Positions 25,006 to 44,063 of a stretch of 51,227 nt of DNA are shown here, in pieces (the first letter of the stretch is position 1; every line of letters begins with the position of its first letter). Source of the stretch: an uncultured Gammaproteobacteria bacterium. Its GTDB lineage: Bacteria > Patescibacteriota > Microgenomatia > UBA12405. The translations under genes were made by a program, and so were the position numbers. The DNA is taken from the NCBI GenBank assembly GCA_964549165.1, contig CAZJUH010000001.1, positions 140,566-191,792 on the forward strand. Direction: 5' to 3'. Under the pieces are notes generated by a model. It was not told the DNA's origin, did not search any database, and worked only from the letters and a program-made list of their open reading frames with translations.

Positions 25006-26061
25006 GTGGACTTAATAAAACGTCGAGATGCTTCAAACAGTCTATTAGATTTTCTTATCTGGGCCATTCTTAGTCTTTTCAGTGTTAGGCTATTTCTATT
25101 AATTTTTAATAATCCCGTTATCGGTCGGGGCAACTGGCACATCGCCCACGTTCTTTGGGGTGGTTTGTTTATGCTTGCGGGCATAATTATATTTATCATT
25201 TTTTCGGGCAAGTCAGCTCTTAGAATTGCCTCTATATTAAGTGGTATTGGCTGGGGTCTCTTTATCGATGAGATTGGTAAGTATCTTACACAGGACAATA
25301 ATTACTGGTTTCGACCTGCCGTTGTCTTTATCTACATTTCCTTTGTTTTAATATTTTTTCTTTATCGAATTTTAGAAAAAAATACTCGTCCCACCCGAGC
25401 CTCATTATGGCACGGGCTACTTGAAGACTGTCAGGAACTTGTCAATGACGATCTTGAAGTAAAAGAAAAGAAAATAATTCTAAACGAGATCAGTGAATTA
25501 GAATTATTATTGTCTTTACCCGCAGAAAAAAAGATATTATTGGATCTAAAAGCGCTTGTAACCTCAATTGAACCCCAAAAAGATCGTTATAAATTAAACT
25601 TAAGTAAATTTATTGCTTCAACTTTGAAAATTACTTACAATCGTCTTTTTAAAAAGAGATTAGTTTTTTACGCTCTGTTATTTTATAGTCTTTGGTACAT
25701 TGGAGACAAGCTATTAGATTTGACAAAGTTATTATTAAACCCAAACAAAATTTTGCTTCTTCAAGATTATTATCGTCATTATAATTTTTTTTCTGAGATT
25801 GATGTTTTTATGATAAGTTCAAAATTTGTTATTGATATTTTTGTTGCCCTATTCTTAATCCTAGGATTTATTTTTTTTATCAAAAAAAAGACCATAAAAG
25901 GGATTAGCTTTTTTCAACTGGGCTTATTAATTAATATCTTTTTAGGGGCCCCGATTAAATTTTATTTTGAACAGTTTAGTGCTGTTTTTTCTTTAATTTT
26001 GTCTATTTTTGTTTATTCTTGGCTCAAAGACTATTATCAGGAAAAATTATTGAAACTCTAG
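25006..26061 (+). CDS. Hypothetical polytopic membrane protein
   Basis: Multiple TM segments; WHIAHVLWGG and GLFIDE motifs; function not recognised. Confidence 0.75.
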   Translation: MDLIKRRDASNSLLDFLIWAILSLFSVRLFLLIFNNPVIGRGNWHIAHVLWGGLFMLAGIIIFIIFSGKSALRIASILSGIGWGLFIDEIGKYLTQDNNYWFRPAVVFIYISFVLIFFLYRILEKNTRPTRASLWHGLLEDCQELVNDDLEVKEKKIILNEISELELLLSLPAEKKILLDLKALVTSIEPQKDRYKLNLSKFIASTLKITYNRLFKKRLVFYALLFYSLWYIGDKLLDLTKLLLNPNKILLLQDYYRHYNFFSEIDVFMISSKFVIDIFVALFLILGFIFFIKKKTIKGISFFQLGLLINIFLGAPIKFYFEQFSAVFSLILSIFVYSWLKDYYQEKLLKL

Positions 26062-26072
26062 GCGATTTTTGC

Positions 26073-26078
26073 TATAAT
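26073..26078 (+). promoter_or_regulatory. Extended -10 box for tmRNA
   Basis: TGCTATAAT 12 nt before the predicted mature 5' end. Confidence 0.65.
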
Positions 26079-26090
26079 TCCTTGTTTCGT

Positions 26091-26539
26091 GGAGATGTAA
26101 TGAATTGACGGAGTTGTTCTTTAAAAAACTGCAAGCCGACTTTGACTCATTCAGTCGAATCGCTAACGCGATCCGCCTCTGGCGGAAAACAGAGTCAAAA
26201 CAAACATGCCAAAAATACTTTTGGTGTTGACTTAACCAAGGTAGCTCAAAACGTTAATTCGTTTTTTGCTCCCAAGGCCAATGCTTACGCTTTAGCTTAA
26301 GCACTCAACCATTGTTTATTTTCCTGTTCTAAGGGGATTTAAACAGTGTCAATAAAATTAGAATGCTCTTGTTGGAATCTCGATTTTCTAACAATTTAAG
26401 AGGGGAGTAATGTCCCCACTAATCGACATTTTAAGAAAATTAATAATTTTTTTCTTAAAAATTAAGTCTAAACTATTAAAGCTTGTAGACGTTTTTTTTA
26501 GTCAGCTTTCGGACCCCGGGTCACTCTCGGGCATCTCCT
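26091..26539 (+). ncRNA. ssrA: tmRNA with non-canonical tRNA-like domain; tag ORF 26208-26300 (AKNTFGVDLTKVAQNVNSFFAPKANAYALA)
   Basis: 5' GGAGATGTAATGAATTGAC pairs with 3' CATCTCC (26532-26538); tag ends AYALA-stop; smpB is adjacent. Confidence 0.85.
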
Positions 26540-26546
26540 CCTTCGC

Positions 26547-26614
26547 CTCGCTGAAGTCCCAATGAATTGGGACGAAAGCGGGCTTCGCCCTCATTCAGCT
26601 AAGGCTTCGGCGAG
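26547..26614. repeat. Nested palindromic (REP-like) element between tmRNA and the GIY-YIG gene
   Basis: Outer stem CTCGCTGAAG/CTTCGGCGAG; inner perfect hairpin GTCCCAAT-GA-ATTGGGAC (26556-26573). Confidence 0.75.
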
Positions 26615-26647
26615 ACACAGTCCTCAAAATTTGGTAATATTTCTCTC

Positions 26648-26896
26648 ATGTACTACGTCTATATTTTAAGGTGTTGCGATAGAGGTTTTTATGTAGGTTG
26701 CACAGATAATTTAAAATCAAGGTTTGAAAAACATTCTCGCGGGTATATTGACGCTACTAAATATCGTTTACCGCTAAAAATTGAAATGTATTTCTGCTTT
26801 AGAAATAAATATGTTGCGTATAATTTTGAAAAATATTTAAAGAGTGGTTCCGGAAGAGCCTTTACGAAAAGACATTTTACCGAAGAGTTTTTTTAG
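26648..26896 (+). CDS. Small stand-alone GIY-YIG nuclease family protein
   Basis: YYVYIL...FYVG.T.NL..R...H and FEKYLKSGSGR motifs; 82 aa. Confidence 0.85.
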   Translation: MYYVYILRCCDRGFYVGCTDNLKSRFEKHSRGYIDATKYRLPLKIEMYFCFRNKYVAYNFEKYLKSGSGRAFTKRHFTEEFF

Positions 26897-27290
26897 CCTC
26901 TTTCTTTCTAATCTTCTCTCTCTTCTCAAATTTTCTCATCTTTCTTCCAATTCCAATTTCCATCTTAAACCAAATTCCTTGCAAAAAAATTGAAATGGGA
27001 ATCATCATATATTTTTGATTTCGGTAAGACTGCAATTTTGCAATTTCTTTGGAGTTTAAAAGCAGTTTTCTCTCTCCACTCTTGTCTGTTTCCTGATTTT
27101 GACTGTATTTATAAGGAGTTATTTCTAAATTCATAACTGTCGGCATGCCATTAATTACTTCCACCTTTGCCCCCTTAAAATGAACTCCGTTGACTCGCAG
27201 GGCTTTGGCATCAGCCCCACTCAGGACAATCCCAGCCACCATCTTGTCGCTAAAACTATAGTCAAGCGAATCTTTATTAAAATATTTCAT
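26877..27290 (-). CDS. smpB: SsrA-binding protein SmpB, divergent
   Basis: AGIVLSG, RKLLLN..EI, IP...F...FKMEIGIG and basic C-terminal tail; next to tmRNA. Confidence 0.82.
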   Translation of the reverse strand: MKYFNKDSLDYSFSDKMVAGIVLSGADAKALRVNGVHFKGAKVEVINGMPTVMNLEITPYKYSQNQETDKSGERKLLLNSKEIAKLQSYRNQKYMMIPISIFLQGIWFKMEIGIGRKMRKFEKREKIRKKEAKKTLR

Positions 27291-28723
27291 TTTATTTTTA
27301 TTCGATAAATTTTCCCATTGGCGGTGAGTACTAAAACAGCCTGATTTTGGTCATCGATCCCAATGTCATTAATTATCATTTTTCCAAAATTATTTTTCCC
27401 TAGAATTCTACCATCTTTATGATAAATATAAACAGTATTATTATCGGCAACATAAGCTAAAAAATTTACTTCTTCACTTGTCTCAAGGTCCTTGTTTGTT
27501 GTTAAACTCGGGATAAAGCTCATTTCGTATTTTTTCTCTTCACCCCGACTATAATGATAGATTTTGCCCGACTTACCCAAAGCCCAGATATCACCATCAA
27601 TCGCCATTCCCGTTGTTTCTTCCCCTAAACTTATTCCTTCTTTGAGCCAGATAATTCCATTTTTCCCACTCAGTTTTTCAATTTTTTGATTGTCATTATT
27701 TAAAGCATAAAAAAGACCATTCCAGCCCTTTATATCGCCAATATTTTTTATCTCTTTAATTTCCATTTCTAGGAGATTATTTCTTTTTATTTCATAAATC
27801 TTGTTTTGATCAAATCCGTAACGCCGGTCTCCATTAATAAATGTTCCGAGCCATAGTTTAATCCGGTCATCGGTAACCATCTTTTCAGTTGACCTATTTT
27901 TAATATCGACGAGGTTTATCTGGCCCAAATCATTACTCCACAAATAGACCAAATTATCTTTTATGGTCATTCCCTTAAATTTTCCTCCTTCAGAAATCAA
28001 AGCAGTATCATAAGCCACCTCGTAATCAATACTCTCTTCCCCGAGTTCCTTTTTAACTCCCTCTATTTTACTTTTCATTGCCAGTAACTCTTCTATATAT
28101 TTTTTATCTGTTATTTTAATTTCACTAATAATTAAATCTGCTTTTTTGGCCAGTTCTAGGGCAGTATCAATATTGATCGTTCTGACTCCCTCAATTTCTG
28201 TTTCTATTTTATTTATCTCTTCTTTTGCTTTTTTAATTTTGCTTATTTCTTCATTTTGGGTTCTTTTTTGATAACCAAAAAAAGTGCCCGCAATTAATAG
28301 ACCCAGAACCACAAAACCCAAAATTAGATTAATTGTTTTATTGCTTTTTTCTTGAGACTGATTTTTTTCTTTTATGAAAATATCTTTTTTGTTATTAATT
28401 ATTTGAAGTTTTATAGCTGCCCCTTCAAAGTTTTCTCTTTTTCCGAGTTTATATTCCTCCTCAGCTATTTTATTGAGTAGCCAAATTTCGTCACCCTCTC
28501 TTACCTGACCAGTGTTTCCATCTATTAATCTGGCGACGATATTGCTTCTTTTTAAAAAAACATTTCCTTCTCCTTCAATCTTGATTTTTATTTTTTCCCG
28601 GTTAAATTCAATCTCAATTATTTTCGTGTTGTTTTCAAGACCTGTTCGATTCACTGACCTTATTTCATTCCACCCGCTTTCTCGTGCTTTTTGCCCGATA
28701 AGCCTCGTTACTCGATGTTCCAT
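27287..28723 (-). CDS. Hypothetical membrane-anchored protein with probable C-terminal beta-propeller
   Basis: Central TM helix, coiled-coil stretch, then short beta-strand repeats. Confidence 0.65.
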   Translation of the reverse strand: MEHRVTRLIGQKARESGWNEIRSVNRTGLENNTKIIEIEFNREKIKIKIEGEGNVFLKRSNIVARLIDGNTGQVREGDEIWLLNKIAEEEYKLGKRENFEGAAIKLQIINNKKDIFIKEKNQSQEKSNKTINLILGFVVLGLLIAGTFFGYQKRTQNEEISKIKKAKEEINKIETEIEGVRTINIDTALELAKKADLIISEIKITDKKYIEELLAMKSKIEGVKKELGEESIDYEVAYDTALISEGGKFKGMTIKDNLVYLWSNDLGQINLVDIKNRSTEKMVTDDRIKLWLGTFINGDRRYGFDQNKIYEIKRNNLLEMEIKEIKNIGDIKGWNGLFYALNNDNQKIEKLSGKNGIIWLKEGISLGEETTGMAIDGDIWALGKSGKIYHYSRGEEKKYEMSFIPSLTTNKDLETSEEVNFLAYVADNNTVYIYHKDGRILGKNNFGKMIINDIGIDDQNQAVLVLTANGKIYRIKIK

Positions 28724-33882: not shown

Positions 33883-35425
33883 AAAGGAGGTGATCCATCC
33901 GCACCTTCCAGTACGGATACCTTGTTACGACTTAACCCTCATCGCTGGATTTACCTTAGTCCCGATAAATCGGGATATTGGGTACCCCCAACTTTGCTGA
34001 TTTGACGGGCAGTGTGTGCAAGAGGCGAGAACGTATTCACCGCACGCTGCTGATGTGCGATTACTACCAATTCCGGGTTCATGCAGGCGAGTTTCAGCCT
34101 GCAATCCCAACTGAGGGCTAGTTTAGGGATTAGCTCCACCTTGCGGTCTTGCAACCCTCTGTTATAGCCCATTGTAGGATGTGTGTAGCCCTGGATATAA
34201 GCATCATGATGACTTGACGTCGTCCCCTCCTTCCTCCTAACAAAATAATGCTAGGCAGTCTTCTGTGACACAATAACACAGAACGGGGGTTGCGCTCGTT
34301 ACCTCACTTAAGAGAACAACTCACGTCACGAGCTGACGATAGCCATGCAACAGCTGTGTACCACCCTCAAAGGATGTCCCGATTTCTCGGGATTTGCAGG
34401 TACATTTCAAACCCAGGTAAGGTTCATCGCTTTGTATCGAATTGAACCACATGCTCCACTGGTTGTGCGCCTCCCCGCCAATTCGTTTGAGTTTCGGCCT
34501 TGCGGCTATACTCCCCAGGCGATCCGTTTAACGCGTTTGCTAACATCCCTCCCTAATAAATTAAAGAAGAACTAACGGACAATGTTTACGGCTAGGACTA
34601 CTCAGGTCTCTAATCTGATTTGCTACCCTAGCTTTCGTCTCTGAACGTCAGTATGTACCTAGTTACCCGCCTTCGCGCTTGGTGTTCTTTTTAGTATCCA
34701 CGGATTTAACCCCTACACTAAAAATTCCAGTAACCCCGATACCACTCTAGTCTTTTAGTATCTTGCCCCTTTCTCCGATTGAGTCGGAGTCTTTGAAACA
34801 AGACTTAAAAAACCGTCTACAGACCCTTTACGCCCAATAAATCCGAGTAACGCTCGTAGCCTACGTATTACCGCGACTGCTGGCACGTAGTTAGTAGCTA
34901 CTTATTCTAGTGGCCTTCATGGCCGCTAAAAAGGAGTTTACAACCCTAGGGTCTTCATCCTCCACGCGGTGTCGCTGCGTCAGACTTTCGTCCATTGCGC
35001 AAAATTCCTAACTGCTGCCACCCGTAGGTGTATGGGCCGTGTCTCAGTCCCATTGTGCCGGACTCTCCGCTAAGAGCCGGTAACCGTCATTGCCTTGGTA
35101 AGCCGTTACCTTACCAACTAGCTGGTAGTAAATAGGCCGTTTTCGTAGTGACTTGCGTCTTTCACCCGTAGGCGTATGGGAAATTACCCCCTCTTTCGAG
35201 GAGCTATGTCCCGCTTCGAAGTACGTTCCTATTTTATACTCACCCGTTTGCCACTACCCTGCGCTCCGCACTGCGTTTGAGCTTCGGAATAGCAGGCTAT
35301 CCATATTTAAGGATCGCATGCGACTCCGTAGTTCCACCGCAAAGTGGAACGAAGGATCGTTCGACTTGCATGTCTTAGGCACACCGCCAGCGTTCACCCT
35401 GAGCCACGATCAAACTCTTAGTACA
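33883..35425 (-). rRNA. rrs: 16S rRNA, stand-alone, with enlarged V1 region
   Basis: AGAGTTTGATCGTGGCTCAG near the 5' end, GTGCCAGCAGTCGCGGTAA, AAGTCGTAACAAGG and 3' GGATCACCTCCTTT; ends approximate. Confidence 0.98.
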
Positions 35426-42310: not shown

Positions 42311-44020
42311 ATGAACATGATGGTAAGAGCCGTAATACTAGCTAGGGTATCTGATCAGAAACAAAAAATATACGGTGGTGATTCACTTGATGACCAGATG
42401 GCGCAGTGTCAAAAGTTTATTGACAATCAAGGGTGGACGCTTGCATGTCGCCCCTTTGTCCTGATTGAAAGTGGTAGAAAAGGTGAAAGAAAATACTTTT
42501 GGGAAGTTTACGATTATTGTAAATCTAAAAGTAAAACCAGCGAAAAAATTGATTATCTTGTGGTGTTGAATATCGGAAGATTTACCAGAGGTGGAGGTGT
42601 TGAATACATCAGACTCAAAAAGGAATATGAAGCTATTGGCGTACAAATTACTGATGTTTTTAATACTGTTGGACATAAGGTCAATACCCTTGAACAGTAC
42701 GGTTTTACTTATGATTGGAGTGTTTATTCACCAACGGAAACTGCTGAAATTCATGAGGCAGATCAAAAATGTGGCCAGGTCAGAGACATATTAACGCAGA
42801 CAGTAAGTGGCTGTATTAGGAATATCAACAAAGGTTACTGGAATGGCCCCCCACCCTTTGGCCTATTGGGTAAAAAAGTTGAGACAGTTGAAGATGGAAC
42901 ACGAAATGTGCTGGCCGAAAATACACTTGAGAGTCAATTTATAAGAAGGATTTATGAGTTGAGAGCGAGCGGTACAACTGATCCAGAAATCGCTGAAAAA
43001 ATAAACTTGATGGGTTTTAAGACAAGGTTGATGGTGAAACGAGATAGTAGAACTAGAATAAAAATTGGCACCAAAGGTGGTGTCAAACTTACAGTCAAAA
43101 AAATTCAGGAGTGGGTGGTCAATCCAATTTATTGCGGGGTGATTGTAGCAAAATGGACGAAATATCAACCAATAAAAGCATCTATGTTTTCTGGGTTGGT
43201 TGATATTGAAACTTTTAACGCTGCAAACAAGGGTAAAATTTACATCATCAAAAATGGCGATGGAAGTTTTTACATAAAGCACAACATAAAGTGGGCAAAT
43301 ATAAATCAGCCGGATAAAAGAATGAGGAATAACCCTGCCTTTCCATTCAAAAGTGTACTCTTGTGCCCAACGTGCCACAAAGAAGTAAAGGCGAGTTCTT
43401 CAAGAAGTAGATCTGGGAAGAAACATCCATATTATCACTGTGATAGAGGGCATAAACGATGGTATAAGAAGCCAGAAGAAGTACACCAAGCCTTGATAGA
43501 GAACTTAAAAAAGCTTAAATTTTCAGATTCATACGCCAAATTATTTGAAGCATCATTTATTGAGTCTTGGAAAGAGAAAATGCAAAAAGCTATGATTGAC
43601 AGCCAGGAGGCAGAAAGTTATGTCTCAGAGCTCTTGGTAAAGCGTAAAAGTAAGCTAGAAGCGATAGAAATGGCTACAAGTCCGGTAGTCAAAAAGGCCT
43701 TCGAAGAAGAGTTTGAAGATATAGATAATCAGATTAAGAAGGCAAGAGGTCAGAGAAACGTTATCGAGGATAAAGAGGTGGACGTGAAGCTTGCATTGAG
43801 GTATGGGACATATTTAATGGAACACCCAGGAGAATTACTGCTAGGTAAGGAGAATATCAATAATAGAAGATACCTTTTTGGACTGGTCTTTGAAGAGCTT
43901 CCTACTTATGACGAATTAGTTAGTGGAACCACAAAATTAAGGCCTATCTTCCAATTAAAGGGAAACGAAAACGAGTCAAAATTACAGTTAGTCCAGTGGG
44001 CAGGAGTTGAACCTGCATAA
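42311..44020 (+). CDS. Large serine recombinase
   Basis: ARVS catalytic motif, ESG, GPPPFG recombinase domain, C..C...YYHC zinc ribbon, C-terminal coiled coil. Confidence 0.93.
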   Translation: MNMMVRAVILARVSDQKQKIYGGDSLDDQMAQCQKFIDNQGWTLACRPFVLIESGRKGERKYFWEVYDYCKSKSKTSEKIDYLVVLNIGRFTRGGGVEYIRLKKEYEAIGVQITDVFNTVGHKVNTLEQYGFTYDWSVYSPTETAEIHEADQKCGQVRDILTQTVSGCIRNINKGYWNGPPPFGLLGKKVETVEDGTRNVLAENTLESQFIRRIYELRASGTTDPEIAEKINLMGFKTRLMVKRDSRTRIKIGTKGGVKLTVKKIQEWVVNPIYCGVIVAKWTKYQPIKASMFSGLVDIETFNAANKGKIYIIKNGDGSFYIKHNIKWANINQPDKRMRNNPAFPFKSVLLCPTCHKEVKASSSRSRSGKKHPYYHCDRGHKRWYKKPEEVHQALIENLKKLKFSDSYAKLFEASFIESWKEKMQKAMIDSQEAESYVSELLVKRKSKLEAIEMATSPVVKKAFEEEFEDIDNQIKKARGQRNVIEDKEVDVKLALRYGTYLMEHPGELLLGKENINNRRYLFGLVFEELPTYDELVSGTTKLRPIFQLKGNENESKLQLVQWAGVEPA

Positions 44021-44063
44021 AACGGTTTTACAGACCGTTGCCTAACCGCCCGGCACCCACTGG
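43992..44063 (-). tRNA. tRNA-Tyr(GTA) with C1:G72, A73 and short variable loop; CCA not encoded
   Basis: CCAGTGG/CCACTGG acceptor, GCC/GGC D-stem, ACGGT-CTGTAAA-ACCGT anticodon arm, GCAGG-TTCAACT-CCTGC T-arm. Confidence 0.9.

Follow-up and report, generated by a model that had tools for sequence, protein, structure and literature searches.

A functional tmRNA-SmpB pair of Shapirobacteria with A3:U70 and a U or G discriminator in place of the alanine identity set

Introduction

The acceptor stem of bacterial transfer-messenger RNA (tmRNA), the product of ssrA, contains a G3:U70 pair that has been described as "conserved in all ssrA sequences", and according to reviews and surveys tmRNA is always alanylated (PMC3968760, PMC1168896). 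In the tmRNA alignment of Burks et al. the 3G-U357 pair is invariant (PMC1168896). The only oddity of this kind mentioned by Hudson et al. concerns the closing pair, which is A1:U72 in the tmRNA of Carsonella ruddii (PMC4131195). In the complex of tmRNA with its partner protein SmpB the anticodon and D stems are replaced by SmpB, and helix 2 mimics the long variable arm of a tRNA (PMC3968760). Here we describe the ssrA gene and the adjacent smpB gene on a 51,227-nt stretch of contig CAZJUH010000001.1 (the window; features in Table 1). Both belong to a functional tmRNA-SmpB pair whose tRNA-like domain carries A3:U70 together with U73 or G73 instead of G3:U70 and A73, and this holds across a whole clade, the Shapirobacteria. 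A literature search retrieved no report of a tmRNA without G3:U70, of a Shapirobacteria tmRNA or of a tmRNA variant charged with an amino acid other than alanine.

Identification and structure of the tmRNA

With permissive filters the Rfam family RF00023 matched positions 26091-26542(+) over the full model (1-374) with 52.2 bits (gathering threshold 47; E 1.6e-19), and the tmRNA proposed for the region 26091-27290 by an initial annotation, which had been made from the DNA letters, is therefore real. The default-filter Rfam scan of the whole window missed it. ARAGORN likewise detected no tmRNA in the window, nor in any of about 50 Shapirobacteria genome loci, including one (L047) that carries G3 and A73; this failure is a limitation of the detector and not an absence of the gene.

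The 5' and 3' ends of the RNA form the 7-bp acceptor stem, the 5-bp T-stem and the 7-nt T-loop typical of the family. For the body of the molecule an RNAalifold prediction on 22 diverse members (alignment A2) gave 81 nested pairs, 49 of them with compensatory double changes, a count that covers helix 2, helix 5 and the pseudoknot body and includes nested pairs only. By architecture and score the RNA is a member of the tmRNA family, yet it fails the alanine-identity feature of this family.

All seven pairs of the acceptor stem are Watson-Crick pairs, so that the stem is free of G:U, and no shifted register exists that would yield such a pair. The A3:U70 pair and the discriminator U73 can be read directly from the sequence, as had been noted in the initial annotation, and neither G3:U70 nor A73 is present in the window. 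No variant was detected at 26093, 26536 and 26539 in Logan contigs of four independent metagenomes, and a Logan contig from one aquatic metagenome run contains the exact SmpB sequence of the window. Exact matches to window proteins led to short Logan contigs only. The window tmRNA does not encode the CCA end. Since C75 is followed by T, the terminal A, and in some relatives also C75, would be added post-transcriptionally; among the relatives described below, positions 74-75 read CC in 33, CA in 25 and CT in 11 cases.

The T-arm departs from the canonical form as well. A non-canonical loop had already been recognised, and this observation stands; the stem of 6 bp and the loop of 5 nt drawn at that time do not, since comparison of 68 relatives shows 5 bp and 7 nt, and the additional G:C pair occurs in some sequences only. 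The T-stem covaries, with CG 33, UA 31 and UG 5 at 50:64 and CG 43, GC 14 and GU 10 at 51:63. Within the loop U55, C56 and R57 are invariant, while position 54 is G, U or C and position 58 mostly U or C (also A), which means that the T54-A58 pair is lost. The D-loop analogue contains one conserved G compared with GG or GGG in canonical tmRNAs.

Coupled variation of position 3 and the discriminator

In GTDB species representatives and JGI metagenomes, searches anchored on SmpB yielded about 100 loci with SmpB identities of 54-94%, most of them labelled Candidatus Shapirobacteria (Patescibacteria, Microgenomates). Using an nhmmer profile, the tmRNA was found to adjoin smpB in nearly all of them, about 50 from genomes and about 45 from metagenomes. 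The position counts given here are based on 68 distinct full-length tmRNA sequences from these Shapirobacteria genomes and metagenomes.

Across the 68 sequences the acceptor stem is invariant except for position 3, which is A in 65 of them. Only complete sets of position 3 and discriminator were observed: A3 is combined with U73 in 37 sequences and with G73 in 28, G3 is combined with A73 in the remaining three, and any other combination is absent (0/68). In the outgroup-rooted SmpB tree the three G3/A73 sequences (L047, L276 and L277) are placed deep inside A3 lineages. In a comparison of the tmRNAs, L277 is most similar (85%) to the A3/G73 sequence L257 and has the tag type 'AKKTFGVDLTKV' ('AKKTFGVDL'), and L047 and L276 are closest (84-85%) to the A3/G73 sequence L264; the tag type of L047, 'AKSKLSALATDF', is common to A3 relatives. 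Since the G3/A73 forms are nested and fall into two tmRNA and tag types, each nearest to an A3 sequence, the canonical set was probably regained as a pair and probably twice. The alanine determinants thus appear to flip together.

The discriminator changed at least 18 times on the SmpB tree. About 15 of these changes are transversions between U and G, and closely related sequences switch freely between G73 and U73. The changes from G to A and from U to C are easy transitions. Together with A3, however, neither A73 nor C73 was ever found. Taking into account that U/G exchanges recur while A and C never accompany A3, position 73 seems to be read by a partner that tolerates keto bases but neither A nor C. 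Furthermore, the restriction of A73 to sequences with G3:U70 suggests that the A3 forms are not substrates of the alanyl-tRNA synthetase (AlaRS) and that the AlaRS of the clade still requires the canonical set.

The loci outside the clade that were recovered by the same SmpB-profile search (SmpB at most 39% identical), among them loci of Azambacteria, Saccharibacteria, Parcubacteria, Harrisonbacteria, Nitrospirota and Mycoplasma, all have an ARAGORN-detectable tmRNA with G3:U70 and A73. Several tmRNAs of the candidate phyla radiation (CPR) contain the stem GGGGAUG/CAUCUCC together with A73, and the Shapirobacteria stem can therefore be explained as the ancestral CPR stem with a single G3-to-A transition and a change of the discriminator. 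The gap in SmpB identity between 54% and 39% results from the clade-specific search patterns. In a homology search with the SmpB protein the listed matches were all close relatives (at least 69% identity), and a scan of IMG/VR for the 5' end of the tmRNA returned chance matches only.

Many of the contigs of metagenome-assembled genomes that carry smpB-ssrA loci of the Shapirobacteria type are labelled 'uncultured Gammaproteobacteria', 'Candidatus Methanoperedens', 'Sphingobacterium' or 'Woesebacteria' (L001/L017, L006/L022, L008/L025, L010/L032 and others). Errors of binning or labelling in the source records are the probable cause.

Tag reading frame, expression and SmpB

The tag reading frame, which had been described as intact and ending in AYALA, is also conserved across the clade: the relatives keep the frame, the AK start and a hydrophobic end (YALA, LAFA, QALA and others). 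The ssrA promoter is the sole promoter-like site within 25900-27400 and its end lies 12 nt before G1, the mature 5' end; the '..aat' of its -10 box is located at the same distance from ssrA in relatives. In four metatranscriptomes from activated sludge and sediment, contigs of close relatives reached word depths from hundreds to more than 1000. This depth, which stems from reads of related strains, is confined to 26100-26540 and drops to zero in both flanks.

The SmpB of the window can be aligned over its whole length with solved SmpB structures (E 5e-23), covering residues 9-140 of the 144-residue protein of Thermus thermophilus. Within the clade the mean column identity of the SmpB alignment is 82%, and identity between the Shapirobacteria subfamily and the next sampled relatives does not exceed 39%. 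Altered SmpB motifs had been proposed in the initial annotation. NKDS and GADAKA are indeed present and specific to the clade, whereas EKR, although present, is not unusual, since T. thermophilus SmpB contains YEKR. Judged from the sequences, the idea of an SmpB that co-evolved with the tmRNA is plausible.

A serine-type acceptor helix

To our knowledge, the bacterial aminoacyl-tRNA synthetases other than AlaRS and the seryl- and leucyl-tRNA synthetases (SerRS, LeuRS) use the anticodon as an identity element. Since tmRNA has no anticodon, enzymes of the AlaRS, SerRS and LeuRS type are the candidates for its charging. The histidyl-tRNA synthetase was considered as well and rejected because of the T, C or A at position -1 and the lack of C73. 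A scan of 185,579 genomes for GGAGATG...T-loop...CATCTCC was performed and 107 loci among the matches listed were examined. Among these matches 93 tRNAs contained the exact stem of the Shapirobacteria tmRNA, all of them of class II: 91 were tRNA-Ser (90 with G73, one with U73) and two were tRNA-Leu with A73. The single U73 case is a tRNA-Ser(CGA) of Mesobacillus maritimus with the stem GGAGAUG (L157:7172-7260), so that a natural tRNA-Ser can evidently carry U73. In other CPR phyla the tRNA-Ser has the stem GGAGAGG/CCUCUCC and G73.

Serine identity does not depend on the anticodon but rests on the variable arm, and G1-C72 and G2-C71 are absolutely conserved in most bacterial tRNA-Ser (PMC9976931). 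G73 is an antideterminant against LeuRS and the tyrosyl-tRNA synthetase (TyrRS) and is moderately important for the SerRS of Escherichia coli, whereas A73 is a leucine determinant and its replacement by G73 turns leucine into serine identity (PMC9976931). The window tmRNA contains G1:C72, G2:C71 and an acceptor helix of the tRNA-Ser type; the serine-type discriminator G73 is replaced by U73 in the window and is present in 28 of the 65 A3 relatives. Based on these identity rules and on the mimicry of a long variable arm by helix 2, a tmRNA that combines a tRNA-Ser acceptor helix with a discriminator other than A is a plausible SerRS substrate, and by analogy the same tmRNA carrying A73 would resemble a tRNA-Leu.

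Taken together, the sequence comparisons indicate that the A3 tmRNAs are probably charged with an amino acid other than alanine. Charging by SerRS, with helix 2 serving as the long variable arm, has in our view about an even chance of being correct. The wider proposal, that Shapirobacteria possess the first natural non-alanine tmRNA, a seryl-tmRNA whose identity is set by positions 3 and 73, has been toggled repeatedly within the clade and depends on a keto-specific read-out of the discriminator, is put forward more tentatively, as a possibility just short of even.

According to this proposal, AlaRS would no longer charge the A3 tmRNA. SerRS, which ignores the anticodon, would read G1:C72, G2:C71 and the neighbouring acceptor pairs as well as the long variable arm mimicked by helix 2. 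A keto base (G or U) would be needed at position 73. With A73 the RNA would be open to LeuRS or AlaRS; C73, too, was never observed. The seryl-tmRNA would enter stalled ribosomes with SmpB and EF-Tu in the usual way, serine instead of alanine would link the nascent chain to the tag AKNTFGVDL...AYALA, and the product would be targeted for proteolysis. Starting from GGGGAUG and A73, the switch would have required the change of G3 to A and one change of the discriminator, and it would have been reversed at least once.

Several observations weigh against charging by SerRS. The window has U73, in contrast to G73 in 90 of the 91 stem-matching tRNA-Ser, and the tmRNA lacks a true variable arm, a D-arm and an anticodon arm. 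The junction nucleotides (GAC) in front of the T-stem are the same as in canonical tmRNAs and helix 2 shows no visible adaptation to SerRS. Moreover, the acceptor stem is nearly unchanged from that of alanine-type CPR tmRNAs, and its match with tRNA-Ser is possibly in part a coincidence. The trees are neighbour-joining trees of short sequences, and the three G3/A73 sequences may stem from a single evolutionary event or from just two. With the SerRS and AlaRS of E. coli as tblastn queries, no CPR enzyme was detected in the 2 Mb of retrieved loci.

Two further sets of contigs from the source run were inspected. An 11.7-kb contig with a tRNA-Ser and similar depth was rejected as a Shapirobacteria sequence, as its 21-mer matched other CPR phyla only. 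The contigs covering tRNA-Ala came from mixed organisms and no A was reported at position 3, although variants near alignment ends are possibly unlisted.

Alternative explanations

Of the three options raised in the initial annotation, a tmRNA that is charged differently is the one favoured by the exclusive occurrence of complete sets (65 versus 3, none mixed) and by the presence of its stem in tRNA-Ser for 91 of the 93 tRNAs listed. That the tmRNA is still alanylated, either by a Shapirobacteria AlaRS of relaxed or altered specificity, perhaps aided by SmpB, or by one that reads other features of the tRNA-like domain, seems unlikely. Such an enzyme would be in agreement with a tag that begins with an alanine codon and ends like the classical ssrA degron, with the existence of mitochondrial AlaRS enzymes that do without G3:U70 (PMC9976931) and with the strong divergence of the clade's SmpB, a protein known to stimulate alanylation (PMC3968760). 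However, A73 is a positive element for AlaRS, and its strict avoidance in A3 sequences despite some 15 discriminator changes and an easy G-to-A transition would be difficult to understand if AlaRS were the partner. The joint return of the nested lineages to G3:U70 and A73 makes sense only if the AlaRS of the clade needs the canonical set, and the stem offers no G:U pair at any position. The changed AlaRS specificity considered in the initial annotation is disfavoured by the same avoidance and the same return. Charging with a different amino acid, for example by the glycyl-tRNA synthetase (GlyRS), which uses U73, or by some dedicated enzyme or an unknown one, is not very probable either. The discriminator of the window is that of bacterial glycine and cysteine tRNAs, U73 is rare in tRNA-Ser (1/91 listed), and the remodelled T-loop and D-loop analogue could serve an unusual partner. 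On the other hand, the exact stem belongs to tRNA-Ser in 98% of the matches listed, and the free exchange of G73 and U73 does not fit GlyRS or the cysteinyl-tRNA synthetase, both of which need C2:G71 or anticodon bases. Both enzymes were rejected due to the wrong 2:71 pair and the lack of an anticodon.

We consider it very improbable that the RNA is not aminoacylated at all, be it a decaying ssrA or an RNA with a charging-independent role in cells in which another rescue factor, of the ArfB type, is at work. The genomes of CPR bacteria are reduced, ARAGORN fails on the gene and the T-loop is off consensus, but across the 68 sequences SmpB, the acceptor stem and the tag, both in its frame and in its hydrophobic end, are under strong purifying selection. 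Furthermore, a selective position 73 is only to be expected if the 3' end is recognised by an enzyme. The decaying system suggested in the initial annotation is rejected in view of the 49 covarying pairs, the conserved tag, the column identity of SmpB, the near-consensus promoter and the high metatranscriptome depth. Finally, there is a negligible probability that the gene is an artefact of assembly or sequencing, or a pseudogene in a genome that has a canonical ssrA at another site. The visible part of the genome comprises 51 kb only; nevertheless, dozens of species have the same bases, which also recur in independent assemblies and runs, and no second tmRNA was found in the 51-kb window by ARAGORN and the default Rfam scan. 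Charging with an amino acid other than alanine, with serine as the candidate, thus remains the preferred explanation.

Genomic context

The coordinates of the features in the ssrA-smpB region are compiled in Table 1.

Table 1. Position of ssrA, smpB and associated elements in the window.
Feature	Position	Strand	Evidence or detail
tmRNA (ssrA) gene, G1 to C75	26091-26541	+	Rfam RF00023
Acceptor stem, 5' strand GGAGAUG (G1 = 26091, A3 = 26093)	26091-26097	+	sequence, RF00023 match
D-loop analogue UAAUGAAUUGAC	26098-26109	+	comparison with other CPR tmRNAs
Insertion of 27 nt in the pseudoknot-1 region, two extra small hairpins	26160-26186	+	alignment A2, columns 61-97
Tag reading frame, resume codon GCC (26208-26210), 30 codons, stop TAA (26298-26300)	26208-26300	+	peptide AKNTFGVDLTKVAQNVNSFFAPKANAYALA
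T-arm, stem CCCGG/UCGGG (5 bp), 7-nt loop GUCACUC (26520-26526)	26515-26531	+	comparison of 68 relatives
Acceptor stem, 3' strand CAUCUCC (U70 = 26536)	26532-26538	+	sequence, RF00023 match; invariant in 68/68 relatives
Discriminator U73	26539	+	sequence
C74, C75	26540-26541	+	next base T
ssrA promoter, sigma-70 type: TTGAAA, 17-nt spacer, TATAAT, extended -10 TG	26050-26078	+	11/12 positions match
GC-rich multi-hairpin element directly after ssrA	26547-26614	+	minimum free energy -32.8 kcal/mol, z -2.1
GIY-YIG nuclease-family open reading frame, 82 aa, between ssrA and smpB	26648-26896	+	Pfam PF01541, 43.7 bits
smpB, 137 aa, convergent with ssrA, 335 nt apart	26877-27290	-	Pfam PF01668, 98.3 bits (threshold 27)

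The insertion in the pseudoknot-1 region is restricted to the window and a few near-identical strains, in which the tmRNA has 451 nt, and is absent in relatives of about 90% identity (423 nt). Downstream of ssrA, the GIY-YIG reading frame overlaps the 3' end of smpB by 20 nt. The segment containing it (about 330 nt, 26543-26896) was found in about 17 of the about 100 related loci, which are scattered on the tree, and it always starts directly after C75 ('ttcgcc...'); in the loci without it the end of ssrA lies about 12 nt from smpB. Based on this distribution the segment 26543-26896 resembles a small mobile GIY-YIG element directed at the 3' flank of ssrA. The start 'ttcgcctcg...' likewise follows ssrA in several distant relatives, and the multi-hairpin element appears to be the leading edge of the inserted segment.

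The sole tRNA gene of the window encodes a tRNA-Tyr(GUA) of 73 nt at 43991-44063(-) with C1:G72, a short variable loop and A73. This form, which is conserved in five related loci (L021, L022, L028, L041 and L056), is the class I one of archaea and eukaryotes; bacterial tRNA-Tyr, in contrast, belongs to class II, with G1:C72 and a long arm. Recognition by a TyrRS of the archaeal type can therefore be expected, which would leave only tRNA-Ser and tRNA-Leu as class II tRNAs in the lineage. The 16S rRNA gene at 33883-35425(-) contains an 82-nt insertion near the 5' domain and is directly followed by a gene for a prenyltransferase (UppS-like). No 23S rRNA, tRNA-Ile or tRNA-Ala gene was found within the window. 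With the UppS-like gene directly after the 16S rRNA gene and no 23S rRNA gene in the window, the rRNA genes appear to be unlinked.

Comparison with known systems

The Shapirobacteria tmRNA shares with canonical tmRNAs (RF00023), including those of other CPR bacteria, the one-piece architecture with acceptor stem, T-arm, helix 2 and pseudoknots, an internal tag reading frame that begins at a GCN resume codon and encodes a hydrophobic end, and the adjacent smpB gene. Its acceptor stem is only one base apart from that of Azambacteria and Parcubacteria tmRNAs (GGGGAUG/CAUCUCC). It differs from the canonical form in A3:U70, U or G at position 73, the T-loop without the 54-58 pair, the single G of the D-loop analogue and its failure to be detected by ARAGORN. 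As ARAGORN and the default Rfam scan both miss the gene, Shapirobacteria genomes are likely annotated as lacking tmRNA.

With bacterial tRNA-Ser it has in common G1:C72, G2:C71, A3:U70, G4:C69 and A5:U68, a recognition that does not involve the anticodon and a helix resembling the long variable arm. In contrast to tRNA-Ser it has no real variable, D- or anticodon arm, U73 occurs in 37 relatives and in the window, and the T-loop is non-canonical. The known mimicry of the long variable arm by tmRNA would hereby become a functional prediction, namely recognition by SerRS.

An engineered precedent is the E. coli tmRNA, the identity of which Nameki and co-workers are said to have converted from alanine to histidine in 1999 with a few changes at the acceptor end. 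Trans-translation reportedly showed no intrinsic need for alanine on tmRNA in this case. That switch was made in the laboratory, while the switch in Shapirobacteria would be natural, clade-wide and reversible. If true, it would represent a phylum-level exception to the rule of G3:U70 and alanine, implying that alanine is not mechanistically required for natural trans-translation, and a natural experiment in which the amino acid identity of an RNA was switched, and switched back, by two substitutions.

Rare natural departures from the acceptor rules of the alanine system in reduced genomes are known from two other cases. The tmRNA of Carsonella ruddii keeps G3:U70 despite its unusual closing pair, and the animal mitochondrial tRNA-Ala without G3:U70 is served by a co-evolved AlaRS (PMC9976931). 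Unlike in both of these systems, the alanine determinants of the Shapirobacteria tmRNA appear to have been replaced by those of another amino acid, with the discriminator varying together with position 3.

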